Shown piece by piece: positions 16,307 to 62,395 of a stretch of DNA of 64,000 bases. The stretch spans positions 1,335-65,334 of the forward strand of contig JAKQUO010000028.1 in assembly GCA_029569255.1 (NCBI GenBank), read 5' to 3'. The notes under the pieces were generated by a model, which saw only the letters and a list, made by a program, of their open reading frames with translations, ran no database searches and had not been told where the DNA came from. A program made the translations under genes and the position numbers. Source of the stretch: Acidobacteriota bacterium. Lineage in GTDB: Bacteria; Acidobacteriota; Aminicenantia; Aminicenantales; Saccharicenantaceae. Numbering within the stretch: the stretch's first letter is position 1; the number at the start of each line of letters is the position of its first letter.

Positions 16307-16307
16307 C

Positions 16308-17336: not shown

Positions 17337-17689
17337 TCCCCCAGCAGCTGCTTGATCCGGGCCTTGAGCTCTTCGAGCGAGGCGGACTTGACGACGTAGG
17401 CGTCGGCCGCCCAGGTCATGAAGTCCTCCTTGTAGCTCTGGTAGGCCGAGTTGATGATGATGGGGATGTCCTTGCGCAGGCCCATGATCTCGGTGATGAG
17501 CTCGATGCCGTTCTTGCCCGGCATGCGGATGTCGGTGACGATGAGGTCGAAGGACCCCTCCCGGAGGGCGGCCAGGGCCGCCTCCGCGTCCGTCACCGCC
17601 GTGATCTCGTAGCCCTCTCCCCGGAGCTCCTCCTCGTAGAGCAGGCAGAGGGGCTTCTCGTCCTCGACGAGCAGGATCCTTTTTGTCAT
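17333..17689 (-). CDS. Single-domain response regulator (CheY-like receiver)
   Basis: MTKRILLVEDEKPLCLLYEEELRGEGYEITAVTDAEAALAALREGSFDLIVTDIRMPGKNG (D..D...K receiver signature). 118 aa. The upstream part of the track ORF is artefact. Confidence 0.85.
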   Translation of the reverse strand: MTKRILLVEDEKPLCLLYEEELRGEGYEITAVTDAEAALAALREGSFDLIVTDIRMPGKNGIELITEIMGLRKDIPIIINSAYQSYKEDFMTWAADAYVVKSASLEELKARIKQLLGE

Positions 17690-46208: not shown

Positions 46209-47653
46209 GAGGCGTCGTCGCCGTCGCGGCCCTGGCCGTCCGGCTGGCCTTGTCCCCGGCCTTCGGCCAGGAGCGCTTCCGGCGGACCCCTCCCCTGCCC
46301 GACGCCCGGCCCGTCGAGCTCAAACTCCCGGAGGTCCGGACCGCCGTGCTGGAGAACGGGCTGACGGTGGCCACCGCCGTCCAGCCCGGGGCGCTCACGG
46401 CCACCCTGATGCTCGTCGTCAAGGCGGGCGAGGCCGATTCGCCGCCGGACCGGCCCGGCCTGGCCGGGTTGACGGCGCGGATGATCGGCAAGGGGACAAA
46501 GAGGCTCTCGGCCGAGTATTTCGAGAACATGGTCGAAGCGATGGGGACGGAGCTCTCCGCCGAGACCCGCATGGACTACACGACGGTGTCCCTGCGCGTC
46601 CTCCCCGAGCAGCTGGACCGGGGCATCTTCGCCCTGAGGCTGATGGTCCTCGAGGCCTCGTTCTCCGAGCGCGAGCTGGCCGCCGTCCGAAGGGAGGCCT
46701 TCTGGGGGCTTGTGGACCGGATGAAAGACCCCGAGGCCCTGGCCCGGAGGCATCTCTTCCGCGTCCTCTTCGAGGGGCATCCGTACCGGACGGCGGCCTA
46801 CGCCGAGGACGTCATCAAGTTCATCGCCGCCAAGGACGTCGCCGCCTTCTACGAGGCCTTCTACCGGCCGGCCAACGCCGCCGTGATCGTCTTCGGGGCC
46901 ATCGACGGCGAGACGGCGGCCCGCCGGGTGGCCGGCCACTTCGGCGGCTGGCAGGGCGCCTTTCCCGGTCGGGTCGCCGTGCCGCCGCCATCCCCCAACG
47001 CCCGCGACCGCGTCTGCTTCGTCGAGGCGCCCAACGCCCCCTCGGCCGCCGTGGTCGCAGGCAACGTCGTCATGGACGCCTCCGGCCCGGACGTCTTCCC
47101 CTTCCTCGTCCTCATGCAGGTCCTGGGCGGGACGACGCGGAGCCGCCTGTTCATGAGCCTGCGCGAGACCAAGGGCTACGCCTTCTACGCGTTCAGCGAG
47201 GCCGCGTTCTTCCGCTCGTGCGGCGCCTATTGGGCCCGGGCCCTCGCCCCGCCCGAGACGATCGTCGCCGCGGCCCGGGAGATCCTGCGCGAGATCGAGG
47301 CCCTGGCCGCGGCGCCGGCCGGGCCCGCCGAGATCGAGGAGGGCAAGTCCTTTCTCATCGGCAACCTGCCCGCCCGGTTCGAGTCCCCCGAGGGGTTCGC
47401 CGAGGGCCTGGCCCGCCGCGTCGCCCTGGGCCTCGACGAGGCCCAGTGGGACAAAGGGCCGGAACGGGTCAAGCTGGTCAACGCGGACACGGCCGGGGCC
47501 GCCGCCCGCAGGCACCTGGCCGCCCGTCCGATCGTCGTCATCGCGGGCCGGCCGGAATGGCTCGGCCCGGTGGCCGAGGCGTTCGCCTCGGTCGAGGTCT
47601 ACGACCCCGCCGGAACGCTCGTTCGAACGCTCGTCAAAGGAGAGAGGCAATGA
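46205..47653 (+). CDS. Secreted M16-family protein, non-catalytic type (no HxxEH)
   Basis: Signal peptide MRGVVAVAALAVRLALSPAFGQE. The motif position reads GLAGLTARMIGKGTK. ATGA overlap with the upstream M16 gene. Confidence 0.8.
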
Positions 47654-49332
47654 AGATCATCGAATGCGTCCCCAATTTCAGCGAAGGCCGCGACAAAGAG
47701 AAGATCGGGGCCATCCGAGGCGAGATCGAGGCCGTCCCCGGCGTCAAGCTCCTCGATGTGGACCCGGGGGACTCGACCAACCGGACCGTCGTGACCTTCA
47801 TCGGAACGCCGGAGGCGGTGAAAGAGGCCGCCTTCCGGGCCATCGCCAAGGCCGCCGAGGTCATCGACATGCGCGGGCACAAGGGCGCCCACAGCCGGAT
47901 CGGGGCCACCGACGTCTGCCCGTTCGTCCCCGTCTCGGGCGTGACCATGGACGATTGCGTCAAGCTGGCCGGCGAGCTCGGCGCCCGCGTCGCCTCCGAG
48001 CTGGGGATCCCCGTCTACCTCTACGAGGCGGCGGCCCGCAAGCCGGAGCGCCGCAACCTGGCCGTCGTCCGGGCCGGCGAGTACGAAGGCCTGCCCGAGA
48101 AGCTCAAGGACCCCCGCTGGGCGCCCGATTTCGGCAAGCCCGTCTTCAACCCCAAGTCCGGGGCGACCGTCGTCGGCGCCCGGGAGTTCCTCATCGCCTA
48201 CAACATCAACCTGAACACCCGGGACCGCAAGCTGGCCCACGAGATCGCCCTGAGCCTGCGAGAGAGCGGCCGGGCCAAGCGGGACAAGGACGGCAACGTC
48301 GTCAAGGACGCCCGGGGCCGGACGGTCAAGGTCCCCGGCCGGTTCAAGGAGGTCAAGGCCGTCGGCTGGTACGTCGAGGACTACGGCGTCGCCCAGGTCT
48401 CCGTCAACTTCACCAACTACAAGGTGACGCCCGTCCACGTCGTCTTCGACGAGGCCCGGCGCCTGGCCGGAAAGCTCGGCCTCCGGGTGACCGGCAGCGA
48501 GCTCGTCGGCCTCATCCCCCTGGAGGCCTTGCTCGCGGCCGGCCGCCATTACCTCGAGAAACAGGGCAAGAGCCCGGGCGTGCCGGAGGAGGAGCTCGTC
48601 CGCATCGCGGTCAAGTCGCTCGGGCTGGCCGACGTCGCCCCCTTCGATCCGGAGAAGAAGATCATCGAATATCAGTTCCGCGACGGCGGGGCCCGCCTCG
48701 TCCGGATGTCCCTGGCCCGTTTCGCCGACGAGCTGTCCATGGATTCGCCGACGCCCGGCGGCGGCAGCGTCGCCGCTCTCTGCGGCAGCCTGTCCGCGGC
48801 CCTGGCGGCCATGGTGGCCAACCTGACGGTCGGCAAGAAGGAGTACCAGGGCGTTTGGGCGGACATGGCCGAGACGGCCGTCCGGGCCCAGCGGCTCAAG
48901 AGCGCCCTCCTCGAGGCCGTGGACCGGGACACGAAGGCGTTCGACAAGGTCATGGACGCCCTCCGCCTGCCCAAGACCACGCCGGAGCAGGCCGAGGAGA
49001 AGGACCGGGCCGTCGAGGCGGCGAACAAGGAGGCCACGCTCGTCCCGCTCGAGGTCCTTGAGAAGGCCGTCGAGGCGGTGACCCTGGCCCGGCGGGCGGC
49101 GGCCGAGGGCAACAAGAACTCCGTGAGCGACGCCGGAGTGGCCGGGTTGGCCGGGCAGGCCGCGGGCGACGGGGCCTACTACAACGTCCTCATCAACCTG
49201 GCCGGGATCAAGGACCGGGCGTTCGCCGCCCGGGTCAGGCGCGACGCGGACCGGGCCAAGAGGGCGCTCGACAGGGAAGGCAAGGCCGTCAGGGACATCC
49301 TGGCCCGGGCCTTGAGAGCCTCGAAGGGCTGA
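47650..49332 (+). CDS. ftcD: Bifunctional glutamate formimidoyltransferase / formimidoyl-THF cyclodeaminase (FtcD, fused form)
   Basis: N-terminal formiminotransferase domain (MKIIECVPNFSEGRD...). C-terminal cyclodeaminase domain (SPTPGGGSVAALCGSLSAAL...). ATGA overlap with the M16 gene. Confidence 0.8.
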   Translation: MKIIECVPNFSEGRDKEKIGAIRGEIEAVPGVKLLDVDPGDSTNRTVVTFIGTPEAVKEAAFRAIAKAAEVIDMRGHKGAHSRIGATDVCPFVPVSGVTMDDCVKLAGELGARVASELGIPVYLYEAAARKPERRNLAVVRAGEYEGLPEKLKDPRWAPDFGKPVFNPKSGATVVGAREFLIAYNINLNTRDRKLAHEIALSLRESGRAKRDKDGNVVKDARGRTVKVPGRFKEVKAVGWYVEDYGVAQVSVNFTNYKVTPVHVVFDEARRLAGKLGLRVTGSELVGLIPLEALLAAGRHYLEKQGKSPGVPEEELVRIAVKSLGLADVAPFDPEKKIIEYQFRDGGARLVRMSLARFADELSMDSPTPGGGSVAALCGSLSAALAAMVANLTVGKKEYQGVWADMAETAVRAQRLKSALLEAVDRDTKAFDKVMDALRLPKTTPEQAEEKDRAVEAANKEATLVPLEVLEKAVEAVTLARRAAAEGNKNSVSDAGVAGLAGQAAGDGAYYNVLINLAGIKDRAFAARVRRDADRAKRALDREGKAVRDILARALRASKG

Positions 49333-49334
49333 CC

Positions 49335-50156
49335 CTATCCCCGGCCCGGCCGCGCGGCCCGGCCCTTCCGTCGCAGCGAGAACGCGGCGAAGGCGGCGAA
49401 GCAGAGGATGACGATGGCCGCCGAGGCCGGGATGTTCAGGGCGACCGACAGGGCCAGGCCGCCGGCCACGGCCAGGACGGCCACGGCGATCGAGGCCCTC
49501 ACCGCTCCCCGGAAGCTCGAGGCGACCTGGAGCCCGGCGGCCGCCGGGATGACCAGGAGCGCGGCCACGAGCAGGATGCCGGCGATCTTCATCCCCAGCA
49601 CGATCGTGACGGCCGTCAGGACCATGAGCAGCGTATCCAGACGGCCGACGGGGACGCCGGCGGCGCGGGCCGATTCCCGGTCGAAGGTCATGTAGAGAAG
49701 CTTGGCGTAGTTCAGCCGGACCGCGGCCAGGACGGCGGCGGCCAGGACGAGGGTCAGGACGACCTCGACCGGCTCGATGGCCAGGATGTCGCCGAAGAGA
49801 TAGGCCATGAGCTCGACGTTGAAGCTGCGGGCGAGCGAGGCCAGCAGGACGCCGGCGGCCAGGCCCAGGCTGCTGAAGATGCCGATGGCCGTGTCGCCGT
49901 GGAGGCCGGCCCGGTCCTTGATCCGCATGACCCCGACGGCCGCGGCGACGGCCACGGCCAGGGCCGCCGCGAGCGGCAGGACGCCGAGGAACAGGCCGAA
50001 GGCCACCCCGGCGAAGGCGATGTGGGCCAGCCCGTGGCCGATCATGGCGTCCTTGCGGAGGACCAGGAAAAGGCCCAGCACGGCGCAGGCCACGGCGATC
50101 AGGACGCCGGCCAGGAGGCCGCGCTGCAGGAAGCCGTATGCGAGCAGGGCGTCCAT
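49335..50156 (-). CDS. Metal (Zn/Mn) ABC transporter permease, ABC-3 family
   Basis: 273 aa, about 8 TM helices. ZnuB/MntB-like. Confidence 0.8.
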   Translation of the reverse strand: MDALLAYGFLQRGLLAGVLIAVACAVLGLFLVLRKDAMIGHGLAHIAFAGVAFGLFLGVLPLAAALAVAVAAAVGVMRIKDRAGLHGDTAIGIFSSLGLAAGVLLASLARSFNVELMAYLFGDILAIEPVEVVLTLVLAAAVLAAVRLNYAKLLYMTFDRESARAAGVPVGRLDTLLMVLTAVTIVLGMKIAGILLVAALLVIPAAAGLQVASSFRGAVRASIAVAVLAVAGGLALSVALNIPASAAIVILCFAAFAAFSLRRKGRAARPGRG

Positions 50157-50163
50157 CGTCGCG

Positions 50164-50913
50164 TCAGTGCTCGTGGGAGATGAAGTGGTCGCCGCGCTCG
50201 ACCATGGCCCGGAAGACGTCCGAGCGGCAGAACTCGGCGTGGCTGCCGTGGTAGGCCAGCCTCTGGTTGAGGCAGGCGACGCTCGTGACGTGCTTGTTGA
50301 CGATGCCGTAGTCGTGGGTGATGAGGACGATGGTCAGCCCCTCGTCGCGGTTGAGCCGGCGGAGCATGTCGTAGAACGCCGCCTGGGTCTCGGCGTCGAC
50401 GCCCGTCGTCGGCTCGTCGAGGAACAGGATCCGGGGCGAGGTGACCAGGGCCCGGGCGATGAAGACGCGCTGCTGCTGGCCGCCGGAGAGGTGCCCGACG
50501 GGCCAGCGGGCGAAATCGGCCATGCCGACGGCCCGGAGGGCCCGGACGACCCGGCCGCGCCCCCCTCCTCTCCCGGCCCGCCCGGCGGCGAGCAGGGCCA
50601 TGGCCACGACCTCTTCGGCCGAGGCCGGGAAGAGCGGATCGATGTGGGTCGCCTTCTGGGGGACGTAGCCGATCCCGGACCGGTCCGCGAGATCGCCGGG
50701 CGGCGCCCCGAGGAGCTCGACACGGCCCTCGGTGGGCTGGAGCAATCCGAGGATGATCTTGACCAAGGTCGTCTTGCCCGAGCCGTTGGGCCCGATGATG
50801 GCCAGGAAATCGCCTTCCTTGATGGCCAGGTCGATGCCGGTGAGGACGGGGGTCCCGTGGTAGGCGAAGGACACGCCGCGGACGGCGACGAGGTCCATGG
50901 GATTCACCGGCAT
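50164..50913 (-). CDS. Metal ABC transporter ATP-binding protein (ZnuC-like)
   Basis: Walker A GPNGSGKTT. Signature LSGGQQQRV. Walker B ILFLDEPT. Confidence 0.85.
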   Translation of the reverse strand: MPVNPMDLVAVRGVSFAYHGTPVLTGIDLAIKEGDFLAIIGPNGSGKTTLVKIILGLLQPTEGRVELLGAPPGDLADRSGIGYVPQKATHIDPLFPASAEEVVAMALLAAGRAGRGGGRGRVVRALRAVGMADFARWPVGHLSGGQQQRVFIARALVTSPRILFLDEPTTGVDAETQAAFYDMLRRLNRDEGLTIVLITHDYGIVNKHVTSVACLNQRLAYHGSHAEFCRSDVFRAMVERGDHFISHEH

Positions 50914-51821
50914 CCCAGCCCGTCCCGGAGAGCGGCCAGGTTCTCTTCCATGAGCCCGAAGAAGGACGCGCCGCCTGCCTGCTGTTCCCTGGTCACGTTG
51001 TGCCCGGAGTGAAGGACGAAGACCCGGCCGCCGATCTCGCGGGCCAGCGTCCTCGAAAGGTCCGGCGCCACCGAGTTCTCGAAGAAGACGGTCGTGATCC
51101 CCTCCGCCCGGCAGAAGTCGACGGCTGCCATGAGGTCCCTGGGCCGGGGCTGGGCGTCCGGGCTGAGGCCGTAAAGGGACATCTGGACCAGCCCGTACCT
51201 TCGGGCGAGGTAGCCGAAGGCGCCGTGCCCGGCCAGGACGACGGTCCGGCCGCGGCAGCCGTCGAGGCCCCGGCGGTAGGCCGCGTCGAGGCCTCTCAGG
51301 CGGCCCGCGAGCCTCGCGGCGTTGGCCGTGAACAAGGCCTCCCCGGCCGGATCGAGACGGCCGAGCTCGGCGGCGATCCGTTCCACGATCCTCTGGTCGA
51401 GCTCGAAATCGAGCCAGACGTGTGGATCGAGGGCGCCGTGGCCGTGAGCCTCTTCCCCGCCGCCTCCCCCGGGCCCGGGGAGGCCCAAGCCGGCCGCGGC
51501 CTCGAGCGTCCTGACGCGCCCCGGCGGAAAGGCCTTGAGCAGCCCCGGCAGCCAGGGCTCAAGGCCGGAGCCGATGAAGAGGAGGAGGTCGCACTCGGCC
51601 AGCCGGGCGATGTCGCCCGGTCGCGGCTGCCAGGTGTGGACTCCGGCCCCGGGCGGCAGCAACAGCGAGACCTCGGCCCTGTCGCCGGCGACCTCGGCCG
51701 CGAACTCCTTCAAGGGCAGAACGGTGGCGAGGACCCGGAGCTTGGCCGGGGCCGCGGCGGCGGCCGTCACGGCGGCCGCGGCCAGGGCGGCGGCGAGGAG
51801 GAAACGGGCGGGCGCTCTCAT
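50904..51821 (-). CDS. Metal ABC transporter substrate-binding protein (ZnuA/TroA family)
   Basis: 305 aa. Signal peptide MRAPARFLLAAALAAAAV. DPHVWLD metal-site motif. His-rich loop EEAHGHG. Start at complement 51819..51821, well inside the 847-aa track ORF. Confidence 0.75.
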   Translation of the reverse strand: MRAPARFLLAAALAAAAVTAAAAAPAKLRVLATVLPLKEFAAEVAGDRAEVSLLLPPGAGVHTWQPRPGDIARLAECDLLLFIGSGLEPWLPGLLKAFPPGRVRTLEAAAGLGLPGPGGGGGEEAHGHGALDPHVWLDFELDQRIVERIAAELGRLDPAGEALFTANAARLAGRLRGLDAAYRRGLDGCRGRTVVLAGHGAFGYLARRYGLVQMSLYGLSPDAQPRPRDLMAAVDFCRAEGITTVFFENSVAPDLSRTLAREIGGRVFVLHSGHNVTREQQAGGASFFGLMEENLAALRDGLGCR

Positions 51822-51852
51822 CCCCCCGATTATACTCCCCCGCCCCGGCTTG

Positions 51853-51867
51853 AATCCATCGCGGATT
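51853..51867. promoter_or_regulatory. Palindrome AATCC-N5-GGATT in the divergent znuA / pepD intergenic region; candidate metalloregulator (Zur-like) operator
   Basis: Position between the zinc-uptake operon and a zinc-dependent dipeptidase gene. Not a match to the E. coli Zur box. Confidence 0.2.
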
Positions 51868-51917
51868 TGTGGCATCATCATCGTCTCCGCAACCCATCCC
51901 TCCGATAGGAGAACGAC

Positions 51918-53372
51918 ATGGCCACCACTCTCGGCGAGCTCAATCCCCGGCTTCTTTGGAAGCATTTCGCCAAGATCCTGACCATCCCCCACTGCTCGGG
52001 CCACGAGAAAGCCCTGGGCGACTATGTCCTCGGCGTCGCCGCGGCCCTCGGACTTCCCGGCAAGCGCGACAAGGTCGGCAACGTCGTCGTCGGCAAGCCG
52101 GCGACGGCCGGACGCGATGGCGCGGTCGGCGTCATCCTCCAGGGGCACCTGGACATGGTCTGCGAGAAGGACTCGGACAAGACCCACGACTTCTCCAAGG
52201 ACCCCATCCAGGCCGAGATCAAGGGCGATTGGGTCTACGCCCGGGGGACGACCCTCGGCGCCGACAACGGCATCGGCCTGGCCGCGGCCCTCGCGGTCAT
52301 GGAGGACGCCTCCCTCGTCCACGGCCCGCTCGAGTTCCTCTTCACGGTCGACGAGGAGACGGGTCTGACCGGGGCCAACAAGATCCAGAAGGGCTTCCTC
52401 GCGGGCAAGATGCTCCTCAACCTCGACAGCGAGGACGAGGGCGTCTTCACCATCGGCTGCGCCGGCGGCGCCGATTCCAAGCTCGTCCTGCCGCTCGAGC
52501 GGAAGAAGACCGCTTCGAAGAACCTCTACAGGCTCCATGTCCGCGGCCTCCGCGGCGGCCATTCCGGGATCGACATCAACCAGGGCCGGGGCAACGCCAT
52601 CAAGCTCCTGGCCCGGGTCCTGGACCAGGCCCGGGCGACGGCCGAGTTCGAGCTCGTCGGCGTCGAGGGGGGCAGCAAGCACAACGCCATCCCCCGCGAG
52701 GCCGTCGCCGTCCTGGCCTGCCCTCCGGTCCAAGTGCGGCCGCTGGCCGCGGCGGTCAAGAAGGCCTTCGACAAGATCAAGGTCGAGTTCAAGGCCGTCG
52801 AGCCCGGGGCCGACTACACCCTCGAGCCCCTGTCGGGCAGGGACTTCGCCCTGAGCCGGGCGAGCCGGCAGGTCCTCGTCGATTTTCTCCTGGCCCTCCC
52901 CCACGGCGTCATCGCCATGCACCCCGAGATCGCCGGCCTGGTCGAGACCTCGACCAACCTGGCCATCGTCAAGACGGGGAAGAAGGACTTCTCCGTCCTC
53001 TGCAGCACCCGCAGCTCGGCCGCCTCGGCCCTCGAGGCGACGCGCGGCGTCATCCGGTCCGTCTGCGCCCTGGCCGGGGCCAAGGCCGAGCTCGAGGACG
53101 GCTACCCCGGCTGGATGCCCGACCTCGAGTCCCCGCTCCTCGGAAAGCTCAAGGGCATCTACCGGGCGACCTTCGGCAAGGAGGCCGAGGTCATGGCCAT
53201 CCACGCCGGGCTCGAATGCGGCATCATCGGCGAGAAGTTCCCGGGCATGGACATGATCTCCTTCGGCCCGACCATCAAGAACCCGCACTCGCCGGAGGAG
53301 CACGTCCACATCGGCTCCGTGGAAAAGTTCTGGACGTTCCTCACGGCGTCGATCGACGGCCTTTCGGCGTGA
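51918..53372 (+). CDS. pepD: Aminoacyl-histidine dipeptidase (M20C, PepD-like cytosol non-specific dipeptidase)
   Basis: 484 aa. HLDMVCEKD and [12 protein letters not shown] metal-binding blocks. [11 protein letters not shown]-terminus typical of PepD. Confidence 0.75.
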
Positions 53373-53449
53373 ACAGAAGACGATTCCTGGCCGCCGCTGG
53401 CCTCGCGGCCGCGGCCAAGGCGTTCGGCGGCCGGCAAAGGAGCGCACCG

Positions 53450-53830
53450 ATGAAGAGACAGGTCCAGACCGACAAGGCCCCCAAGGCCATCGGCCCGTAT
53501 TCGCAGGGCATCGTCGCCAACGGCTTCGTGTTCTGCTCGGGCCAGATCCCCATCGACCCGGCCACGGGGGAGCTCAACAACGGCACGATCGAGGAGCAGA
53601 CCCGCCAGGTCCTCAAGAACGTCGCGGCCGTCCTCGAGGCGGCCGGCTCGTCGCTCGAGGAGGCGGTCAAGTGCACGGTCTTCCTCCAGGACATGAACGA
53701 TTTCGCCAAGATGAACGCGGTCTACGCCGAGTTCTTCAAGGCCCCCAGCCCGGCCCGGGCCGCCGTCCAGGTCGCCCGGCTGCCGCGCGACGTCAAGGTG
53801 GAGATCGAGGCCATCGCGCTCGTCAAGTAG
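53450..53830 (+). CDS. ridA: RidA-family reactive enamine/imine deaminase (YjgF/TdcF)
   Basis: [25 protein letters not shown]...[33 protein letters not shown]. Confidence 0.85.
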
Positions 53831-54055
53831 CCGCTTTCAGGAGCGTCCGCCGGGGGCCTCGGGGATCGTCTCCGTTCGCTGCAGCGATTTTTTACGCCGC
53901 CCCGGTCCGGAGCCCGTTCTTAGGTCTCCGTCCCGAGGCCGGCTAAATCGCTGCTTCATGCTCACTCTGACGATACCCCTCACCCCAGCTTCGGCGGTTC
54001 GCAGTCTCCCGTCCCGGCACAAGCCCGGGACATGGACTGGAAGTCCGGGATCCGC

Positions 54056-54061
54056 TAAAAT
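54056..54061 (+). promoter_or_regulatory. -10 box TAAAAT ending 8 nt before the fmdB-like ATG (leaderless-type)
   Basis: ccgcTAAAATagatcctcATG, the same architecture as at 34138..34156. Confidence 0.4.
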
Positions 54062-54069
54062 AGATCCTC

Positions 54070-54288
54070 ATGCCTATTTATGAATACGATTGCAAGGCCT
54101 GCGGCAGGAGGTTCGAGCGCCTCGTCGCCGCCGGGAAAGAGAAGGACGTCGCCTGCGACGCCTGCGGGTCGGCCGACGTCGCGAGGCTGGTCTCCTGCTT
54201 CGGCATCGGCGGAGGCGGGAGCCGGCTCAAGGCTTCCTCGTCGGGCTGCGCGAGCTGTTCGACCAAGTCCTGCGGCACCTGCCACTGA
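54070..54288 (+). CDS. FmdB-family zinc-ribbon protein (putative regulatory)
   Basis: MPIYEYDCKACGRRFE...CDACGS: two CxxC pairs at the spacing typical of FmdB proteins. Confidence 0.7.
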   Translation: MPIYEYDCKACGRRFERLVAAGKEKDVACDACGSADVARLVSCFGIGGGGSRLKASSSGCASCSTKSCGTCH

Positions 54289-54379
54289 ACGGACGGGCGA
54301 TCCGGGTCCCCGCCTCGTTCCCGGGCGGTTCCCTCTATTGACACGGTCCCGGGCTTGACGATTAAATAGGCCCTCGCCC

Positions 54380-56404
54380 ATGCTCAAAACGCTCCATGCC
54401 GCCAGCGTCCGCGTCGGCGTGGACACCGGCGGCACGTTCACCGACGTCGTCGTCTGGCGCGACGGGCGGCTCTCCAACAGGAAGGTCCTGTCGACGCCGG
54501 AGGACCCCTCATGGGCCGTCTTCGAGGGGCTGGCCGGCGTCCTGGACGACCCGCAGGCCGCGTTCATCGTCCACGGCACGACGGTGGCCACCAACGCCCT
54601 CCTCCAGCGCCGGGGCGGCCGCGTCGCCCTGGTCACGACGGCCGGCTTCGAGGACGTCCTGGCCATCGGACGGCAGACCCGCCGGGCCCTCTATTCCCTC
54701 CAACCCGAGGCGCGGTTCGAGCTCGTGCCGGCCGGGCGCCGCTTCGGCCTCCGCGAGCGGACCCTGGCCTCGGGCCGCGTGGAGCGGGCGGTCAGCCGGG
54801 CCGAGGCCCGCGGGCTGGCCGCCCGGATCAAGGCCGCCGGGGCCGAGGCCGTGGCCGTCTGCCTGCTGCATTCCTACGCCAACCCGAAGAACGAGGAAGC
54901 GGTCGCCGCCGAGCTCGAGCGGGCCGGCCTGCTCGTCGCGGTCTCGAGCCGCCTTCTCCCGGAGCACCGCGAGTTCGAGCGCATGTCGACGACGGCCACC
55001 AACGCCTACCTCATGCCGGTCATGGACCGCTACCTCGACCGGCTCGGCCGCGGCCTCCGCGGGGCCGAGCTGCGGATCATGCAGTCGAACGAGGGCTACA
55101 TCTCGCCGGCCCGGGCCCGCCTCGAGCCGATCAAGACCGCCCTGTCCGGGCCGGCCGGAGGGGTCGTCGGCGCCCGGGCCCTGGCCCGGGCGGCCGGGTT
55201 CCCCGACGTCGTCAGCTTCGACATGGGCGGGACCTCGACCGACGTCTCGCTCATCGAGGGCGCGATCCGGCGGACCCACGAGAGCCGGGTCGGGGACTTC
55301 CCCATCCGCCTGCCCGTCATAGACATCCACTCGGTCGGTTCCGGCGGCGGATCGATCGCCGAGGTCGACCGGGGCGGCTCCCTCCGCGTCGGCCCCCGGA
55401 GCGCCGGGGCCGACCCCGGCCCGGCCTGCTACGGCCGGGGCGACCTGCCGACCGTGACCGACGCCAACCTCTGCCTCGGGCGCCTGGACCCGGACTTCTT
55501 CCTGGGCGGCCGGATGCGGATCTATCCCGAGAGGAGCCGGGCGGCCGTCGGGGCCCTGGCCCGCCGGATCGGGAAGTCCGAGCGGGAGACGGCGCTGGGC
55601 ATCGTCGCCATCGCCAACGCCAACATGGAGAAGGCCATCCGGGTCATCTCCGTCGAGCGCGGCCACGACCCCCGGGCCTTCGCCCTTTTCCCCTTCGGCG
55701 GGGCCGGCGGCATGCACGCCGTCGAGATGGCCGGGCACCTGGGCATGCCCGCCGTCGTCGTCCCCCGCAACGCCGGCGTCCTCTCGGCTTTCGGGCTGCT
55801 CGTGGCCGACCCGGTCAAGGATTACACGAAGTCCGTCATGAAGCCCGCCGCCGCCGTCGGCTCCTCCCGGCTCGAGGCGGAGTTCCGCAAGCTCGAGGCG
55901 GCGGCCCGCCGCGACATGGCCGGCGACGGCTTCGCCGCGGCGGACCTCGTCCTGGAGCGGTCGCTCGACTGCCGCTACATCGGCCAGTCCTACGAGATCG
56001 CGGTGCCGTTCGTCCGGGGGCCGGGCCCGGCCGGCCGGGCCTTCCTCGAGGCCTTCCACCGCCGCCACGCCCGCCTCTATTCCTACAGTCAAGACGGACG
56101 GCCCGTCGAGATCGTCAACATCCGCCTCAAGGCGGCGGCCGTGACCGCCAAGGTCCCGATGGCCCGGGAGCCCGGCGCGCGCGCGCTCGACCCGAGGGCC
56201 GTCGTCCGGAAGCGGCCCGTCTTCTACGGAACGAAGAGCTTGGAAGGAGCCGTCCTCGACAGGTCCCGGCTCCGGCCCGGGAACACGGTCGCCGGCCCGG
56301 CCCTGGTCATCGACCCCGAATCGACGGCCTTCATCCCGCCCGGGCACGCCGCCCGGGTCGACGGCTTCGGCAACCTCGTCATCCGCAAGGCCAGGCGCAG
56401 ATGA
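54380..56404 (+). CDS. Hydantoinase/oxoprolinase family protein, A (beta) subunit (HyuA-like)
   Basis: VGVDTGGTFTDVVV N-terminal ASKHA motif. 674 aa. Confidence 0.85.
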   Translation: MLKTLHAASVRVGVDTGGTFTDVVVWRDGRLSNRKVLSTPEDPSWAVFEGLAGVLDDPQAAFIVHGTTVATNALLQRRGGRVALVTTAGFEDVLAIGRQTRRALYSLQPEARFELVPAGRRFGLRERTLASGRVERAVSRAEARGLAARIKAAGAEAVAVCLLHSYANPKNEEAVAAELERAGLLVAVSSRLLPEHREFERMSTTATNAYLMPVMDRYLDRLGRGLRGAELRIMQSNEGYISPARARLEPIKTALSGPAGGVVGARALARAAGFPDVVSFDMGGTSTDVSLIEGAIRRTHESRVGDFPIRLPVIDIHSVGSGGGSIAEVDRGGSLRVGPRSAGADPGPACYGRGDLPTVTDANLCLGRLDPDFFLGGRMRIYPERSRAAVGALARRIGKSERETALGIVAIANANMEKAIRVISVERGHDPRAFALFPFGGAGGMHAVEMAGHLGMPAVVVPRNAGVLSAFGLLVADPVKDYTKSVMKPAAAVGSSRLEAEFRKLEAAARRDMAGDGFAAADLVLERSLDCRYIGQSYEIAVPFVRGPGPAGRAFLEAFHRRHARLYSYSQDGRPVEIVNIRLKAAAVTAKVPMAREPGARALDPRAVVRKRPVFYGTKSLEGAVLDRSRLRPGNTVAGPALVIDPESTAFIPPGHAARVDGFGNLVIRKARRR

Positions 56405-57972
56405 GAACTCCCGACCCGATCGAGCTGGAGCTCTTCAAGAACGTCTTCATCGCCGTCTCCGAGGAGATGGGGGCCGTCCTCGGCCGCACGGCCCTGTCCC
56501 CCAACATCAAGGAGCGCAAGGACTATTCCTGCTCGCTCTTCAACGCCCGGGGCGAGACGCTGGCCCAGGGCTCCCACATCCCCGTCCACCTCGGGGCCAT
56601 GCCGCTGTCCGTGCAGGCCGCCCTCCGGGCCATGGCCTTCGACCGGGGCGACCTCGTCATCCTCAACGACCCCTACCGCGGCGGGACCCACCTGCCCGAC
56701 ATCACCTGCATCTCCCCCGTCTTCCTGGGGAGGCGCCTGAGCTTCTTCGTCGCCAACCGGGCCCACCACTCCGACGTCGGGGGCATGACCCCGGGCTCCA
56801 TGCCCCTGGCCACCGAGCTTTTCCAGGAGGGGCTGATCATCCCGCCGCTCAAGCTCTACGCCCGGGGCCGGATGAACCGGGACGTCTTCGACCTCCTTCT
56901 CTCCAACGTCCGGACGCCCGACGAGCGGCGCGGCGACCTGCTGGCCCAGATCGCGGCCAACGAGGTCGGCCGGACCCGGCTCGAGGAGGCCGTCCGCCGC
57001 TTCGGCGCGGCCAAGGTCCGGCTCTATTCGAAGCTCATCCAGGATTACACCGAAGGCATCCTGCGGGCCGCGATCAGGGCCATCCCCGACGGCGTCTACG
57101 CCTTCGAGGACCGCCTCGACGACGACGGCGTCTCGAACCGCCCGGTCAAGATCGGCGTCCGGGTGACCGTCCGCGGCGACCGGGCCGTGATCGACTTCAG
57201 CCCGTCCTCGCCGCAGACCGAGGGCGGGGTCAACGCCAACTACGCCATCACCTCGTCGGCCGTCCTCTACGTCTTCCGCTCGCTCGTCGAGGAGGACATC
57301 CCCTTCAACACGGGGCTGATGCGGCCGCTCGAGATCGTGGCCCCGCCCCGCTCGATCGTCAACGCCGTCTTCCCGGCCGCCTGCGCCGGCGGCAACGTCG
57401 AGACGTCGCAGCGCATCGTCGACGTCCTGCTCGGCGCCCTGGCCCAGGCCCTGCCCGGCCGCATCCCGGCGGCGAGCCAGGGCACCATGAACAACATCGC
57501 CTTCGGCGGATACGACCCGGACGCGGCCAGGCCCTTCGCCTATTACGAGACGATCGGCGGCGGCATGGGGGCCGGCGCCTCGGCCGACGGCCTCGACGGG
57601 GTCCACACCCACATGACCAACTCCCTCAACACGCCGATCGAGGCCCTGGAGAACTACCTGCCGCTGCGGATCCGGCGCTACGGGCTGCGCCGCGGCTCGG
57701 GGGGCCGCGGCCTCCACCGCGGCGGCCGGGGGATCGTCCGGGAATACGAGTTCCGCGTCCCGGCCGCGCTGACCATCATGTCGGAGCGGCGGCGCTTCGC
57801 GCCCTACGGCGTCCGGGGCGGGCGGCCGGGAGCCAGGGGCCGGAACACGCTCGTCACCGCCCGGGGGACCCGGGTCCTCGGCTCCAAGGTCAACATCAAG
57901 CTCCGCCCGGGCGACGTCCTCAGGATCGAGACGCCCGGCGGCGGCGGCTACGGCCGGGCCCGGGGCCGGTGA
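56401..57972 (+). CDS. Hydantoinase B / oxoprolinase family protein (HyuB-like)
   Basis: IELELFKNVFIAVSEEMG...NDPYRGGTHLPD. ATGA overlap with the HyuA-like gene. Confidence 0.85.
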   Translation: MRTPDPIELELFKNVFIAVSEEMGAVLGRTALSPNIKERKDYSCSLFNARGETLAQGSHIPVHLGAMPLSVQAALRAMAFDRGDLVILNDPYRGGTHLPDITCISPVFLGRRLSFFVANRAHHSDVGGMTPGSMPLATELFQEGLIIPPLKLYARGRMNRDVFDLLLSNVRTPDERRGDLLAQIAANEVGRTRLEEAVRRFGAAKVRLYSKLIQDYTEGILRAAIRAIPDGVYAFEDRLDDDGVSNRPVKIGVRVTVRGDRAVIDFSPSSPQTEGGVNANYAITSSAVLYVFRSLVEEDIPFNTGLMRPLEIVAPPRSIVNAVFPAACAGGNVETSQRIVDVLLGALAQALPGRIPAASQGTMNNIAFGGYDPDAARPFAYYETIGGGMGAGASADGLDGVHTHMTNSLNTPIEALENYLPLRIRRYGLRRGSGGRGLHRGGRGIVREYEFRVPAALTIMSERRRFAPYGVRGGRPGARGRNTLVTARGTRVLGSKVNIKLRPGDVLRIETPGGGGYGRARGR

Positions 57973-57995: not shown

Positions 57996-58472
57996 CTAGG
58001 CCTTCTTGAGCTTGTCCTTCTCGATGAGCAGCATGCCCTGGTAGGAAACGTAGTTCAGGAGGATCATGACCCGCTCGTTCGGGCCGAGCTCCTTGCGGAA
58101 GATCCCCTTGAGGCCCTTGAGCGGCCCCTCGACGACCTCGATCTCGTCCCCGGCGACCGGCTCCTCCCCGTACTTCTCGAAAACGACGAGCCCGTCCTTT
58201 TCCCGGGCCTTGATGCCGAGGATGACCTCTTCCGGGACCGGGGTCGGGCCGGCGTCGTTGCCGACGACGCGCTTGACGCCGCGGGTGTATTTGACCATCT
58301 GGTACTGCTCGGGATATTCGAAGAGAAGGAAAGCGTAGCCGGGAAAGAAGGGCCCGACCCGCTTCTCGCGGACGTACTTCGGGCAGTAGATGGTGAACCC
58401 GCCCTCGGTGAAGAGGCGTTCGACCTGGCCCTCCTTCTTCGGCCTGGTGTTGACGACGTACCAGCGCGGCAT
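57996..58472 (-). CDS. RfaH-like NusG-family transcription antiterminator (NGN plus KOW domains)
   Basis: 158 aa. MPRWYVVNTRPKKEGQVERL...PFFPGYAFLLFEY and the C-terminal GDEIEVVEGPLKGLKGIFRK...MLLIEKD are collinear with E. coli RfaH as recalled. Start at complement 58470..58472, overlapping the upstream stop (TGATG). Confidence 0.75.
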   Translation of the reverse strand: MPRWYVVNTRPKKEGQVERLFTEGGFTIYCPKYVREKRVGPFFPGYAFLLFEYPEQYQMVKYTRGVKRVVGNDAGPTPVPEEVILGIKAREKDGLVVFEKYGEEPVAGDEIEVVEGPLKGLKGIFRKELGPNERVMILLNYVSYQGMLLIEKDKLKKA

Positions 58473-59314
58473 CAGCGGGCCTTGCGTTCCGGGTCGGCGA
58501 GCCCCATCCGGCCGTAGACCTCGGGCCGCCGGTCCTCGAGGAAATGGCGGGCGGCGTGCGAGGCCCGGTTCCGCCGGAGATCGCAGTCGGCGAAGAGGAT
58601 GTGGTCCTCGCCTCGCGGGGCCCGGGCGATGACCCGCCCGTCCGGATCGACCACGTAGGACTCCCCGGCGAACTCCAGCGCGTCCTCGCGCCCGACCCGG
58701 TTCGCCAGGGCGGCGAAGTAGCCGTTCTGGAAGGCGGCCACCTGGAGCTCGGCCTCGAAAATGCCCTCGGTCCACTCCCCGACCGCCCCGGCCTGGGGCA
58801 CGACGACGAGCTCGGCCCCGGCCAGCCGCAGCCCTCTCATGTATTCGGGAAAATGGCGGTCGTAGCATATGGCGACGCCGATCCGGCCGGCGGCCGTGTC
58901 GAAGACGAAGCTCTCCCGGTCGCCCGGGGCGTAGTAGCCGCGTTCGTGGAAGCCGGGGCCCTCCATGATGTGGACCATGCGCGTGACGCCGAGGAGGCGG
59001 CCGTCGGCGTCGATGACCGGCGAGGAATCGAAGGTCCTCTCCCCGTCCCGCTCGAACAGGTTCAGGACGGCCACCGTGCCGGTCTCGCGGGCCAGGGCGC
59101 GGAAGAGGTCGGTCGTCGGGCCCGGGACGGGCTCGGCCAGACCGGGGCTCGAGGCGGTCGCGGGGGATCGCGGATAGAACGGGGTGAAGGCCAGTTCGGC
59201 GAAGGCGACGAGCTTCGCCCCGGCCCGGGCGGCCTCGAGGAAGGCGCGCTTGCCCCGCTCCAGGTTCTCGGCCGGTTCGCCGGTCGCGCGCTGCTGGACG
59301 AGGGCGATCTTCAA
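58472..59314 (-). CDS. Carbon-nitrogen hydrolase (nitrilase-superfamily) protein
   Basis: LKIALVQQRA...GRIGVAICYDRHFPE (catalytic Cys). TTG start overlapping the pepP stop as TTGA. The 754-aa track ORF is mostly artefact. Confidence 0.7.
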   Translation of the reverse strand: MKIALVQQRATGEPAENLERGKRAFLEAARAGAKLVAFAELAFTPFYPRSPATASSPGLAEPVPGPTTDLFRALARETGTVAVLNLFERDGERTFDSSPVIDADGRLLGVTRMVHIMEGPGFHERGYYAPGDRESFVFDTAAGRIGVAICYDRHFPEYMRGLRLAGAELVVVPQAGAVGEWTEGIFEAELQVAAFQNGYFAALANRVGREDALEFAGESYVVDPDGRVIARAPRGEDHILFADCDLRRNRASHAARHFLEDRRPEVYGRMGLADPERKAR

Positions 59315-60699
59315 GCGCGGCAGGCCCTCTCGACGTCGGCGATCGTCTTCGGGATGGGCGGGCCGAGGACCTTGCGGCCCCTGTCCGTGACCAGGACGTC
59401 GTCCTCGATGCGGACGCCCCCGAAGTCGAGGAACTTCTCGACGGCGTCGTAGACGATGAAGTCCCCGTGTCTCTTCTCCTTGCGCCACAGGGCGTACAGG
59501 GCGGGGATGAAATAGAGCCCCGGCTCGACCGTCAGGACGTGGCCGGGCTTGAGCTCCCGGGCCATGCGCAGGTAGGCCAGCCCGAACTGCCGGCTGCGCT
59601 CGACCTTCTCGCCGTACCCGACGTAGTTCTCGCCGTAGTCCTCCATGTCGTGGACGTCCAGGCCGATGTTGTGGCCCAGGCCGTGGGGGAAGAAGAGGGC
59701 GTGGGCCCCGGCGGCGACCGCCTCGGCCGCGTCGCCCTTCATCAGGCCGAGCCCCTTGAGGCCTTCGGCCATGAGCCGGGCCGTCCGGAGATGGACGTCC
59801 TTGAAGTTGACGCCGGGCTTGATCGCCTTGATGGCCGATTCCTGCCCGGCCAGGACGATCCCGTAGATGTCCTTCTGGCGGCGGTTGAACTTGCCGCCCA
59901 CGGGGATGGACCGGGTGATGTCCGAGGCGTAGCCGCTGGGCGCCTCCGCGCCGCAGTCGCAGAGGAGCATCCGGCCCCGGGTGAGGACGTTGTCTTGGGC
60001 GTGCATGTGGAAGATCTGGCCGTTGACCGTGACGATGGGCGGGAAGGCCAGGCGGCAGCCGTTGGCCAGGGCGATGCCCTCCATGGCCCCGGAGATCTGG
60101 TACTCGTACCGGCCGGGCTTGGCCAGGGCCATGGCCGCCAGGTACATCTCGCGGCTGACGGCCGCGGCCGACTCCATCTCCCGGACCTCCTCCTTGGTCT
60201 TGATGATGCGCTGCTCGACCGCGGCCTTGATGAAGGAGGCCGAGGCCTTGGCCTTGAGCTCGCCGACCGGGACGCCCAGGAGCCCGCTCAGGACGATCTT
60301 GTTGTCCGGCCGGTAGGGCGGCAGGTAATGGATGGTCCTGCCGGCGGCCAGGGCCTTGCGCACGACCTCGTCGAAGGCGGCCCGCGGCTTGACCCGCCCG
60401 ACGCCGGCCTCGAGGGCCCGGTCCTTGAGCTTGGGCAGCTCCCCCTCCCAGATGATGTCCTCGATGCCGTGGTCGTCGCCGAACAGGGTGTCGCGGCCCT
60501 CGTCGGCGTCTATGACGGCGGCCAGGCCGGGCGAGGCCAGCCCGAAGAAGTACAGGAACGAGCTGTCCTGGCGGTAACGGTAGGCGTTGGCCGGGTAGTT
60601 CATCGGGCTTTCCTCGTTGGCCAGGAAGATCATCAGGCCCGAGCCGACCGACTTCTTCAGGCGCTTCCGTCGCTCGACGTAGGTCGCGGCTTTGAACAT
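59311..60699 (-). CDS. pepP: Xaa-Pro aminopeptidase (M24B, PepP/PepQ-like)
   Basis: 462 aa. Pita-bread metal ligands in CDCGAEAPSGYASDITR...HGLGHNIGLDVHD...VEPGLY. Confidence 0.8.
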   Translation of the reverse strand: MFKAATYVERRKRLKKSVGSGLMIFLANEESPMNYPANAYRYRQDSSFLYFFGLASPGLAAVIDADEGRDTLFGDDHGIEDIIWEGELPKLKDRALEAGVGRVKPRAAFDEVVRKALAAGRTIHYLPPYRPDNKIVLSGLLGVPVGELKAKASASFIKAAVEQRIIKTKEEVREMESAAAVSREMYLAAMALAKPGRYEYQISGAMEGIALANGCRLAFPPIVTVNGQIFHMHAQDNVLTRGRMLLCDCGAEAPSGYASDITRSIPVGGKFNRRQKDIYGIVLAGQESAIKAIKPGVNFKDVHLRTARLMAEGLKGLGLMKGDAAEAVAAGAHALFFPHGLGHNIGLDVHDMEDYGENYVGYGEKVERSRQFGLAYLRMARELKPGHVLTVEPGLYFIPALYALWRKEKRHGDFIVYDAVEKFLDFGGVRIEDDVLVTDRGRKVLGPPIPKTIADVERACRA

Positions 60700-60806
60700 G
60701 TCGTCCTCCTCGAAGGGTCTCCCCGGATTCTATCACAGTGCCGGCGCCGATTGAAACGGCCGGGGCGCGATGCTATGATGCGGAGGCATCCCGGGAGGAG
60801 GCCGTC

Positions 60807-62216
60807 ATGGGCGGACTGTTCGGCGTCGTCGGCGAGGGCGATATCGTCGAGGACCTGTACTACGGCACCGATTACCACTCGCACCTGGGGACGAAGCGGG
60901 GCGGCCTGGCCGTCGGCAACGGCCCGGGCATCGTCCGCTACATCCACAACATCGAGAACGCCCAGTTCCGGTCGAAGTTCGGCGACGACGTCGTCAAGCT
61001 CCGCGGCTCCCGGGGCATCGGCGTCATCAGCGATTTCGAGGACCAGCCGCTCCTCATCCGCTCCCACCTCGGCAGCTACGCGATCGCCACGGTCGGGGTC
61101 ATCAAGAACATCGACGCGCTGGTCGAGCGGGCCTTCAAGGGCAAGTGCCTCCACTTCGCCGAGATGCGGGGCGGCGAGATCAATCCGACCGAGCTCGTCG
61201 CGGCCGTGATCGACCGCGAGGACTCCTTCGAGGACGGCATCCGCTCGGCCTGGGAGCTCATCCGGGGCTCGTCGTCCATCCTCATCCTGACCGAGGACGG
61301 CGTCCTGGCCGCCCGCGACAAGTACGGCCGGTCGCCCCTCGTCATCGGCGCGAAGCCGGGCGCGGTCGCCGTCACCCTCGAGACCTGCGCCTTCCCCAAC
61401 CTCGGTTTCAGGGTCGAGCGCTACCTCGGCCCGGGCGAGATCGTCCGCCTGACCCCCGAGGGCGCCGAAACGGTCGTCCCGCCGGCGAAGAAGCTCCAGA
61501 TCTGCGCGTTCCTCTGGGTCTATTACGGCTACCCGGCCTCGAGCTACGAGGGCATCAACGTCGAGACGGTCCGCAACCGCTGCGGCGAGTCCCTGGCCCG
61601 GAACGACGACGTCAGGATCATCGACCTCGTGGCCGGGATACCCGATTCCGGCATCGGGCACGGCCTGGGCTACGCCGGCCAGGCCGGCATCCCTTTCCGC
61701 CGCCCCTTCGTCAAGTACACGCCGACCTGGGCCCGGAGCTTCATGCCCCTGAGCCAGGAGGTCCGCGACCACGTCGCCCGGATGAAGCTCATCCCCATCC
61801 GGGAGCTCATCCAAGGCAAGAGGCTCCTGTTCTGCGAGGACTCGATCGTCCGCGGCACCCAGCTCAAGGACACCATCCAGCGTCTCTACGAGTTCGGGGC
61901 GGTCGAGGTCCACATGCGGCCGGCCTGCCCTCCCCTCGTCTACGGCTGCAAGTACCTCAACTTCTCGCGCGCCCGCTCCGAACTCGACCTGGCCGCCCGC
62001 AAGGCCATCGCGGCGCTCGAGGGGCCGGAGCCCAAGAACGTCGCCGAGTACGTCCGGGCCGGCTCGGAGAGATACGAGGCCATGGTCGCCTGGATCGCCC
62101 AAAAGCTCGGCCTGACCTCCCTTCGCTACCAGAAGCTCGAGGACCTGGTCGCGGCCATCGGCCTGCCCAAGGAGAAGCTCTGCACCTACTGCTGGGACGG
62201 CGTCGGGACCGACTAG
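60807..62216 (+). CDS. Amidophosphoribosyltransferase (PurF)-family protein lacking the N-terminal Cys nucleophile
   Basis: Starts MGGLFGVVGEG (canonical PurF is MCGIVGI). GGAGG RBS 6 nt upstream. Ntn-glutaminase-like domain plus C-terminal PRTase domain (DSIVRGTQ PRPP loop). Confidence 0.75.
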   Translation: MGGLFGVVGEGDIVEDLYYGTDYHSHLGTKRGGLAVGNGPGIVRYIHNIENAQFRSKFGDDVVKLRGSRGIGVISDFEDQPLLIRSHLGSYAIATVGVIKNIDALVERAFKGKCLHFAEMRGGEINPTELVAAVIDREDSFEDGIRSAWELIRGSSSILILTEDGVLAARDKYGRSPLVIGAKPGAVAVTLETCAFPNLGFRVERYLGPGEIVRLTPEGAETVVPPAKKLQICAFLWVYYGYPASSYEGINVETVRNRCGESLARNDDVRIIDLVAGIPDSGIGHGLGYAGQAGIPFRRPFVKYTPTWARSFMPLSQEVRDHVARMKLIPIRELIQGKRLLFCEDSIVRGTQLKDTIQRLYEFGAVEVHMRPACPPLVYGCKYLNFSRARSELDLAARKAIAALEGPEPKNVAEYVRAGSERYEAMVAWIAQKLGLTSLRYQKLEDLVAAIGLPKEKLCTYCWDGVGTD

Positions 62217-62279: not shown

Positions 62280-62356
<77 letters not shown>

Positions 62357-62367
62357 GTACTTGCGTC

Positions 62368-62395
62368 ATTATAGCAAATGACGCCGGATTGTCAA
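62368..62395 (-). promoter_or_regulatory. Consensus sigma-70 promoter for the tRNA-fMet gene
   Basis: On the minus strand: TTGACA, 16-nt spacer, TATAAT, then 7 nt to the tRNA 5' end. Confidence 0.6.

Follow-up and report, generated by a model that had tools for sequence, protein, structure and literature searches.

A PurF-like protein without the catalytic cysteine belongs to a widespread family of candidate ammonia-dependent phosphoribosylamine synthases

The committed step of purine synthesis, at which the pathway is regulated, is catalysed by PurF, the textbook N-terminal nucleophile (Ntn) amidotransferase with an ammonia channel. The window analysed here, a stretch of 64,000 nucleotides from an Acidobacteriota bacterium (contig JAKQUO010000028.1 of assembly GCA_029569255.1), encodes a PurF-like protein in which glycine occupies the place of the catalytic cysteine, and this locus raises the question of what a PurF homologue without its nucleophile might do. 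We use the label X for this Cys-less protein and for the family to which it belongs; residues of the window member are counted from Met1 of its 469-residue product and those of canonical enzymes follow the PurF numbering, in which the nucleophile is Cys1. The sequence places X in a distinct, ancient clade of homologues of the Bacillus subtilis-type [4Fe-4S] phosphoribosyl pyrophosphate (PRPP) amidotransferase, with a glutaminase that appears dead and a phosphoribosyltransferase (PRTase) that appears intact. On balance, we lean towards X being a glutamine-independent, NH3-dependent phosphoribosylamine (PRA) synthase, either an isozyme of PurF or a replacement for it.

The gene and the signals that precede it are the following.

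60807-62216, forward strand: coding sequence of the Cys-less PurF-like protein, 469 residues (best match in the Protein Data Bank (PDB) 1ao0, E 1e-49; 177.9 bits with the model TIGR01134)
60793-60801, forward strand: GGGAGGAGG, a Shine-Dalgarno sequence 5 nt ahead of the ATG (visible in the sequence itself)
60751-60779, forward strand: sigma-70-like promoter TTGAAA-17-TATGAT with a TG-extended -10 element, in a 107-bp divergent intergenic region (consensus match only, 10/12)

The reading frame runs from an ATG at 60807 to a stop codon ending at 62216 and, as read from the sequence, its product begins MGGLFGVVGEG. The first explanation to be weighed is an artefact, be it an error of sequencing, a misassigned start codon or a pseudogene in decay, and we consider it extremely improbable: an identical protein (P0001) is present in public data on 30 independent contigs, the N-terminus is conserved in hundreds of sequences, the promoter and ribosome-binding site are correctly placed, and the identity across phyla is 58-82% for the best 80 of at least 591 relatives. 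The conservation data thus exclude this reading, and the sequencing error that the original prediction had named as its own possible undoing is contradicted by 114 of the 120 closest listed proteins, which begin [MV]GG[FL]F. The strong ribosome-binding site described there is the Shine-Dalgarno sequence listed above, and AGGAGG lies at the same distance from the start in relatives of X. Two sigma-70-like sites were seen in the 107-bp intergenic region against 0.2 expected from shuffled sequence, both on the basis of a consensus match only. The statement that no upstream in-frame start supplies the cysteine is also borne out; GTG 60738 is the sole in-frame start upstream of the ATG, it probably lies outside the transcript because the predicted promoter is at 60751-60779, and the peptide read from it, MPAPIETAGARCYDAEASREEAV, has no Cys beside the GLFG motif. 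An alternative start that restores the cysteine was ruled out by this peptide, by the placement of the promoter and by the family-wide N-terminus. An Rfam scan of the window for regulatory RNA returned tRNA only.

Whether X could still use glutamine depends on the N-terminal half of the protein, in which these features were located.

60810-61496, forward strand: degenerate Ntn (class II amidotransferase-like) domain, residues 2 to about 230, with the fold kept, the glutamine site lost and the glutamine loop deleted
60810-60812, forward strand: codon of Gly2 at the position of the Cys1 nucleophile (alignment to 1ao0), a position that is never Cys across the family
60864-60893, forward strand: family-specific motif G-T-D-Y-H-S-H-L-G-T, residues 20-29, replacing the canonical LQHRGQ (family alignment)

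When X is aligned by HMMER with B. subtilis PurF (1ao0; E 1e-49, residues 3-393), Gly2 stands opposite Cys1, as had originally been proposed. Conservation was read from a 114-sequence family alignment and is given per 100 family members. At the Cys1 position these carry Gly (73), Ser (20), Thr (2) or Ala (2), and none carries Cys. The other residues of the site, Arg26, Arg73/Tyr74, the pair Asn101-Gly102 and Asp127, have, like Cys1, the roles described in published PurF structures. The equivalent of Arg26 is Leu in 95 members (Leu27 in the window protein) and that of Asn101, in the oxyanion hole, is Val in 81 (Val96), Gly alone being retained of the oxyanion pair; Asp127 is replaced by Pro (Pro127), and the GHxRYxTxG glutamine loop that holds Arg73/Tyr74 is shortened to 8 residues versus 16-19 in canonical PurF. 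The Pfam model GATase_7 scores 24.8 bits on X, under its cut-off of 25. The motif at residues 20-29 is strongly conserved within the family (D22 97%, Y23 97%, H24 87%, H26 96%, L27 95%), and a second family-specific motif, R-x-I-H-N-I-E-N-x-x-F-R-x-K-F, spans residues 44-58. Because the whole glutamine site is gone, beyond Cys1 alone, X is predicted to be unable to act as a glutaminase. The original claim that the protein could not hydrolyse glutamine is in this way strengthened by the loss of the entire site, while the accompanying statement that the Ntn domain is kept is right for the fold and wrong for Arg26, Asn101, Asp127 and the glutamine loop.

The C-terminal half presents the opposite picture.

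61497-62213, forward strand: type I PRTase domain and C-terminal Fe-S segment, residues 231-469 (alignment to 1ao0, family alignment)
61713-61766, forward strand: equivalent of the flexible catalytic loop, K303...R310-S-F312-M...Q317...R320, which aligns with KNRYVGRTFIQPSQALR of B. subtilis PurF
61836-61862, forward strand: PRPP-binding loop E344-D-S-I-V-R-G-T-Q352 (alignment, family conservation)
61503-61505, forward strand: Cys233, equivalent of the [4Fe-4S] ligand Cys236 of B. subtilis PurF, conserved in 100 of 100
61947-61949, forward strand: Cys381, equivalent of the Fe-S ligand Cys382, conserved in 99 of 100
62181-62192, forward strand: Cys459-x-x-Cys462, equivalents of the Fe-S ligands Cys437 and Cys440, conserved in 98 of 100 each

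The ligand numbering of the B. subtilis enzyme is that of the 1GPH and 1AO0 papers. The residues of the flexible loop are nearly invariant across the family (K 99%, R310 99%, F/Y 99%, Q317 95%, R320 100%), as is the PRPP loop [ED]-D-S-I-V-R-G-T-Q (about 100%; the first acidic residue E in 68 and D in 31, D345 99%, Q352 100%), and the pyrophosphate (PPi) loop G-x-P-D-S-G, which reads GIPDSG in the window protein, is at least 95% conserved. The PRPP loop DSIVRGTQ and the C-terminal cysteines of Fe-S type that had been pointed out at first are accordingly present, as EDSIVRGTQ and as C233, C381, C459 and C462. Two departures from the canonical enzyme were noted in this half, a family-specific insertion at residues 405-424 or thereabouts (18-25 residues across the family) and a change of the nucleotide-site motif from the canonical YFSRPDS to YYGYPxS. 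An AlphaFold2 model built from a 43-sequence alignment (mean predicted local distance difference test score, pLDDT, 64) serves as confirmation of the fold only; the pLDDT of its N-domain is mostly 70-95, and a Foldseek search with it returned PurF structures at ranks 1-17, with beta-lactam synthetase structures also among the matches. A sequence search of the PDB found no solved structure from the X clade, the best match being the canonical PurF 1ao0.

Curated models exclude X from PurF: with TIGR01134, the purF equivalog model, the window protein scores 177.9 bits and two other members 171.7-182.5 bits against a cut-off of 350, compared with 520.7 bits for a canonical PurF of a related operon. 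X therefore departs from PurF in three defining features, nucleophile, glutamine site and curated score, and agrees with it in the PRTase and Fe-S features; we accordingly do not class it as a glutamine PRPP amidotransferase (EC 2.4.2.14), although its action probably resembles the NH3-dependent half-reaction of that enzyme. The closest 120 listed proteins are 74-100% identical to window X, and the named ones among them are proteins from metagenome-assembled genomes of Aminicenantes and Acidobacteriota called "amidophosphoribosyltransferase".

A scan of one genome per species confirmed at least 591 relatives, and the range of identities across phyla and the comparison of neighbours by BLAST are those of the best 80 loci among them. 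The gene is found in at least 591 species genomes of at least 12 phyla, including Asgard archaea, and is without the Cys throughout, so that what had been taken for a peculiarity of one organism is nothing of the kind. The best 80, with the identities to window X quoted above, come from Aminicenantes, Acidobacteriota, Planctomycetota, Gemmatimonadota, Spirochaetes, Verrucomicrobiota, Kiritimatiellae, Lentisphaerae, Desulfobacterales, Latescibacterota, Anaerolineae, Clostridia, Bacteroidales, Asgard archaea and Bathyarchaeota. Among representatives clustered at 50% identity, 835 proteins matched at E <1e-30; the full-length ones begin M[GSTA]G[FLI]FG...GTDYHSHLG, and canonical Cys-bearing PurFs are confined in this search to identities of about 36-40%. 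Between Anaerolineae, Planctomycetes and Asgard archaea X is 64-67% identical, whereas the canonical PurFs of the same genome pairs are 33-40% identical; X and the canonical PurF of its own genome share 24-31%. In closely related genome pairs the two proteins diverge at similar rates, and the inter-phylum plateau of identity in X may reflect horizontal spread as much as constraint. These comparisons describe a large, old family across many phyla, annotated as amidophosphoribosyltransferase in the databases, which in either case is under strong purifying selection and is no decaying copy.

Some proteins at the edge of the family deserve separate mention. P0220, P0221, P0247 (Woesearchaeota) and P0267 are Cys-less PurF-like proteins of about 440 residues with intermediate motifs, for example MAGIFG...LQHRG, and may represent a further, separate Cys-less lineage; P0211, which bears a Nanoarchaeota name, is a separate partial protein of 428 residues. 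Two members of X itself, at 10001-11566 of L085 and 3867-5429 of L090 (GCA_029782595.1), are 520-521 residues long and contain internal tandem duplications of about 47 residues. These are either assembly artefacts or real insertions, and GCA_029782595.1 seems to hold two different X copies on separate contigs.

What the conserved PRTase may be used for is addressed by gene order, which was compared by all-against-all BLAST over the 80 species loci and read in further contigs besides. Relatives of X belong to pur operons and, in some of these, occupy the slot of purF. Four of these further contigs, of Oscillospiraceae type (L085, L088 from Lawsonibacter sp., L089 and L090), have the order purE-purC-X-purM-purN-purO-purH-purD(-purL) with no canonical purF within 10 kb of X, and L081, with the order purC-purF-purM, has canonical purF in the slot that X fills in those four. 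Dysosmobacter contigs carry both genes in the order purE-X-purC-canonical purF-purM-purN-purO-purH-purD-purL, where purH encodes 5-aminoimidazole-4-carboxamide ribonucleotide (AICAR) formyltransferase (AICARFT) only; the canonical PurF of Dysosmobacter, used as a query, gave 120 listed matches, all at least 86% identical and from Dysosmobacter and Oscillibacter. Among the 80 loci a Cys-bearing purF adjoins X in six, one from Anaerolineae (with purC and purL nearby), two from Planctomycetaceae and three from Asgard archaea, and carB adjoins it in 11, from Desulfobacterales, Victivallis and Thermoguttaceae (L025, L043, L045, L046, L049, L051, L053, L059, L066, L072 and L077; L066 is without carA beside carB). 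No other neighbours recur across phyla in these 80 loci. Most other apparent neighbour clusters proved to be alternative-frame reading frames of the X gene itself and were set aside.

Ammonia-dependent PRA synthesis is favoured because X sits in the purF slot of pur operons and because the catalytic motifs of its PRTase are about 100% conserved. The homology to PurF in sequence and fold, the dead glutaminase, the lineages in which X adjoins canonical purF and the higher identity of X than of canonical PurF between phyla also count towards it. The original prediction had offered synthesis of PRA from free ammonia as one option among several; that option gains support from the operon position and the conserved motifs, and the use of NH3 itself is what we infer from them. 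The same note had supposed that a canonical purF elsewhere would mark the Cys-less copy as a paralogue of unrelated function, an expectation that does not fit relatives of X which coexist with canonical purF, often adjacent to it, inside pur operons.

Several observations weigh against an ammonia-dependent PRA synthase. Neither the window nor the other Aminicenantes contigs have any pur gene near X, and in seven loci canonical PurF is adjacent, so that PRA can be made there without X. The family has invariants of its own (D22, Y23, H24 and H26; R44-H47-E50-N51-F54-R55-K57-F58; W237-x-Y-Y-G-Y-P; T305-P-T-W308; Q352), which a simple loss of function does not require and which could signal a new ligand or partner. 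The PRTase domain of the AlphaFold2 model has pLDDT <50, too weak for channel geometry.

One alternative is that X assists canonical PurF as a pseudo-amidotransferase subunit, regulatory or without catalysis of its own, which forms mixed tetramers with it or modulates its activity, its feedback inhibition or the hand-off of PRA to PurD. X lies directly beside canonical purF in four distant lineages, its glutaminase is dead, its nucleotide-site motif is altered from YFSRPDS to YYGYPxS, and its high, surface-wide conservation is typical of proteins with an obligate partner. We nevertheless hold such a partner to be unlikely: the catalytic residues of the PRPP, PPi and flexible loops, needless in a silent subunit, are essentially invariant, X takes the purF slot in four operons with no canonical purF nearby, and most of the 80 loci have no purF within 10 kb.

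The family-specific invariants lead instead to the suggestion that X is a neofunctionalised PRTase with a vestigial Ntn domain, much as beta-lactam synthetase derives from AsnB, and that it acts on an acceptor other than ammonia or catalyses some other reaction of PRPP or PRA within or next to that pathway of purine synthesis. These invariants lie around the PRTase site as well as around what was once the glutamine site, and the insertion of 18-25 residues, the 178 bits against the purF equivalog cut-off of 350, the coexistence with canonical PurF in several genomes and the carB neighbour in 11 of the 80 loci are all in keeping with it. Yet in the pur operons where X takes the purF slot, purD, N, L, M, E, C, H and O each have a gene already, and the one step left over for X is that of PurF. 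Conserved as well is the flexible loop with which PurF encloses a very small nucleophile in its active site; a new acceptor accordingly seems to us as doubtful as a silent partner.

Returning to the ammonia-dependent synthase, the reaction would be PRPP + NH3 -> 5-phosphoribosylamine + PPi, the first de novo purine step with free ammonia in the place of glutamine, and X would act beside PurF as an isozyme or in its stead as a replacement. There is a precedent in the canonical enzyme: according to the account of the work of Mei & Zalkin that is given in PMC3261824, replacement of Cys1 abolishes the use of glutamine and leaves the NH3-dependent activity. External NH3 is thought to reach canonical PurF by way of the glutamine site (PMC12017579). 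In X, the deletion of the glutamine loop might leave the vestigial pocket open so that NH3 or NH4+ enters there, the invariant D-Y-H-x-H residues in the opened pocket might help to capture or deprotonate NH4+, and the NH3 would then travel through the old interdomain channel to PRPP, over which the conserved flexible loop would still close, thereby forming the channel. An ecological logic can also be suggested, in that ammonia-rich anoxic habitats would allow glutamine synthetase to be bypassed with a saving of ATP.

A bolder and distinctly more tentative version of this proposal can be put forward as a possibility. It holds that a clade of glutamine-independent PRA synthases has spread horizontally and has replaced or doubled PurF in anaerobic bacteria, Asgard archaea and Bathyarchaeota, the dead Ntn domain having become a funnel that captures and deprotonates ammonium via D22-Y23-H24-x-H26 and feeds the ancestral NH3 channel. 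The proposed funnel calls to mind the Asp and twin His of Amt channels. On this view, purine synthesis in these organisms would draw directly on ambient ammonia in the place of the glutamine pool, and the substrate would be wrongly named in thousands of "amidophosphoribosyltransferase" annotations.

Comparison with known systems helps to define what is new in X. Like the B. subtilis-type PurF (1AO0/1GPH), X has the two-domain architecture, the length, the PRPP, PPi and flexible loops, the four Fe-S cysteines and, in relatives from Oscillospiraceae, Anaerolineae, Planctomycetes and Asgard archaea, a linkage to pur operons; unlike it, X is without Cys1 and the glutamine site, has an altered nucleotide-site motif and the insertion at residues 405-424, and falls below the TIGR01134 cut-off. 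X may be regarded as the natural equivalent of the Cys1 mutants of Escherichia coli PurF, which have lost the use of glutamine and are left with NH3-dependent PRA synthesis (PMC3261824, PMC12017579), although those are laboratory mutants of a glutamine enzyme whereas X is a naturally fixed, remodelled lineage with further changes in the pocket.

Other enzyme families offer parallels. Beta-lactam synthetase and carbapenam synthetase are homologues of AsnB whose Ntn domain lacks Cys1. X resembles them as a descendant of class II amidotransferases that retains the Ntn fold without the nucleophile, but they have a C-terminal adenylating synthetase and catalyse a new reaction, whereas the C-terminal domain of X is a PRTase and the place of X in operons speaks for the ancestral reaction. 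Isozyme pairs such as NadE with or without a glutaminase domain, and AsnA and AsnB, comprise an NH3-using form alongside or instead of a glutamine-using one. X would share the physiological logic of these pairs; in those pairs, however, the NH3-using form either has no glutaminase domain or is an unrelated enzyme, while in X the domain is retained and highly conserved although inactive.

Our literature search found no paper on the bacterial X family and one relevant precedent, the PurF' of Crenarchaeota (Brown et al. 2011, Biol Direct, PMC3261824). A paper on the Fibro-purF riboswitch was silent on the type of PurF. In PurF', a paralogue of PurF encoded near purF and other pur genes, Ala or Val stands in for the N-terminal Cys, and the authors hypothesised that it is an ammonia-dependent PRPP aminotransferase (PMC3261824). 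X is like it, as compared by description only, in being without the N-terminal Cys and near purF. Descriptions of PurF' are, however, confined to Crenarchaeota, where a true PurF always accompanies it, whereas X stands alone in the purF slot of some operons, and the X clade is mainly bacterial, with Asgard archaea and Bathyarchaeota, and has motifs of its own (GTDYHSHLG). X gives the hypothesis of 2011 broader and experimentally accessible targets, for example WP_326201212.1 (Dysosmobacter) and OGD18369.1 (Aminicenantes). Were the ammonia-dependent reaction confirmed, the entry of nitrogen into purines would be changed for many uncultured anaerobes and for abundant gut Oscillospiraceae, a systematic error of annotation and metabolic models would be corrected, since EC 2.4.2.14 implies glutamine, and X would provide a natural experiment on the roles of the Ntn domain and its channel apart from hydrolysis.

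The surroundings of X in the window itself include a possible source of ammonia.

57996-60699, reverse strand: block of M24 Xaa-Pro aminopeptidase, carbon-nitrogen (CN) hydrolase and RfaH/NusG-like genes, conserved in the Aminicenantes contigs L084, L086 and L087
58472-59314, reverse strand: CN hydrolase, aguB-like (172 bits against a cut-off of 410), with a weak NadE match
62280-62395, reverse strand: tRNA-Met (CAT), with a perfect 12/12 sigma-70 consensus promoter upstream, TTGACA-16-TATAAT, with an extended -10 element

The block lies upstream of X and is divergent from it; downstream, the tRNA-Met gene on the opposite strand is followed by nuoJKL. In principle, the CN hydrolase could release ammonia, and X might then be supplied with NH3 in trans by another subunit, a glutaminase or amidase, in the manner of PurL with PurQ or CarB with CarA. 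CN-hydrolase domains form the glutaminase of NAD+ synthetase, and the gene at 58472-59314 belongs to the conserved divergent block beside X in Aminicenantes. The arrangement is conserved within Aminicenantes only, though, the CN hydrolase is co-transcribed with the M24 aminopeptidase and not with X, no glutaminase-type gene recurs beside X across the 80 loci, and the pur operons that bear X contain no extra amidotransferase, so that we give supply in trans little credence.

Two purine genes are present elsewhere in the window.

24918-25628, reverse strand: purO-like inosine monophosphate (IMP) cyclohydrolase (Pfam IMP_cyclohyd E 2.4e-29; NCBIfam 66.8 bits, cut-off 150)
23834-24913, reverse strand: PurH with AICAR formyltransferase only, immediately downstream of purO (Pfam AICARFT_IMPCHas E 6e-61)

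This PurH covers positions 192-504 only of the 510-position model of bifunctional purH, and both it and the PurO-like protein are below the NCBIfam equivalog cut-offs. With these two genes the organism possesses the closing steps of purine synthesis at the least, which counts in favour of the ammonia-dependent synthase. The original prediction had read PurO and the split PurH as oddities of a non-canonical purine synthesis; the pair is real, and it is no peculiarity of this organism but a recurring bacterial arrangement, purO and an AICARFT-only purH also accompanying X in the pur operons of Oscillospiraceae (L081, L085 and L088-L090).

Further clusters were noted in the window. On the forward strand, 47650-57972 encodes a formiminotransferase-cyclodeaminase, an M20 peptidase, RidA and the A and B subunits of a hydantoinase/oxoprolinase, a set that suggests the catabolism of amino acids and N-heterocycles, an ammonia-releasing process; these genes also flank the X locus in L086 and L087. 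Also on the forward strand, 2992-7831 carries a RACo-type corrinoid activase, a PF02574 S-methyltransferase, a B12-binding corrinoid protein and an MttB-family methyltransferase, and this cassette looks like a demethylation system for quaternary amines or methylamines. Finally, a glycogen/alpha-glucan cluster at 14861-23815 comprises a glgA-like starch synthase, a GalT-like gene, a response regulator and histidine kinase, glgC, a GH57 branching enzyme and a GH57 amylase/4-alpha-glucanotransferase.

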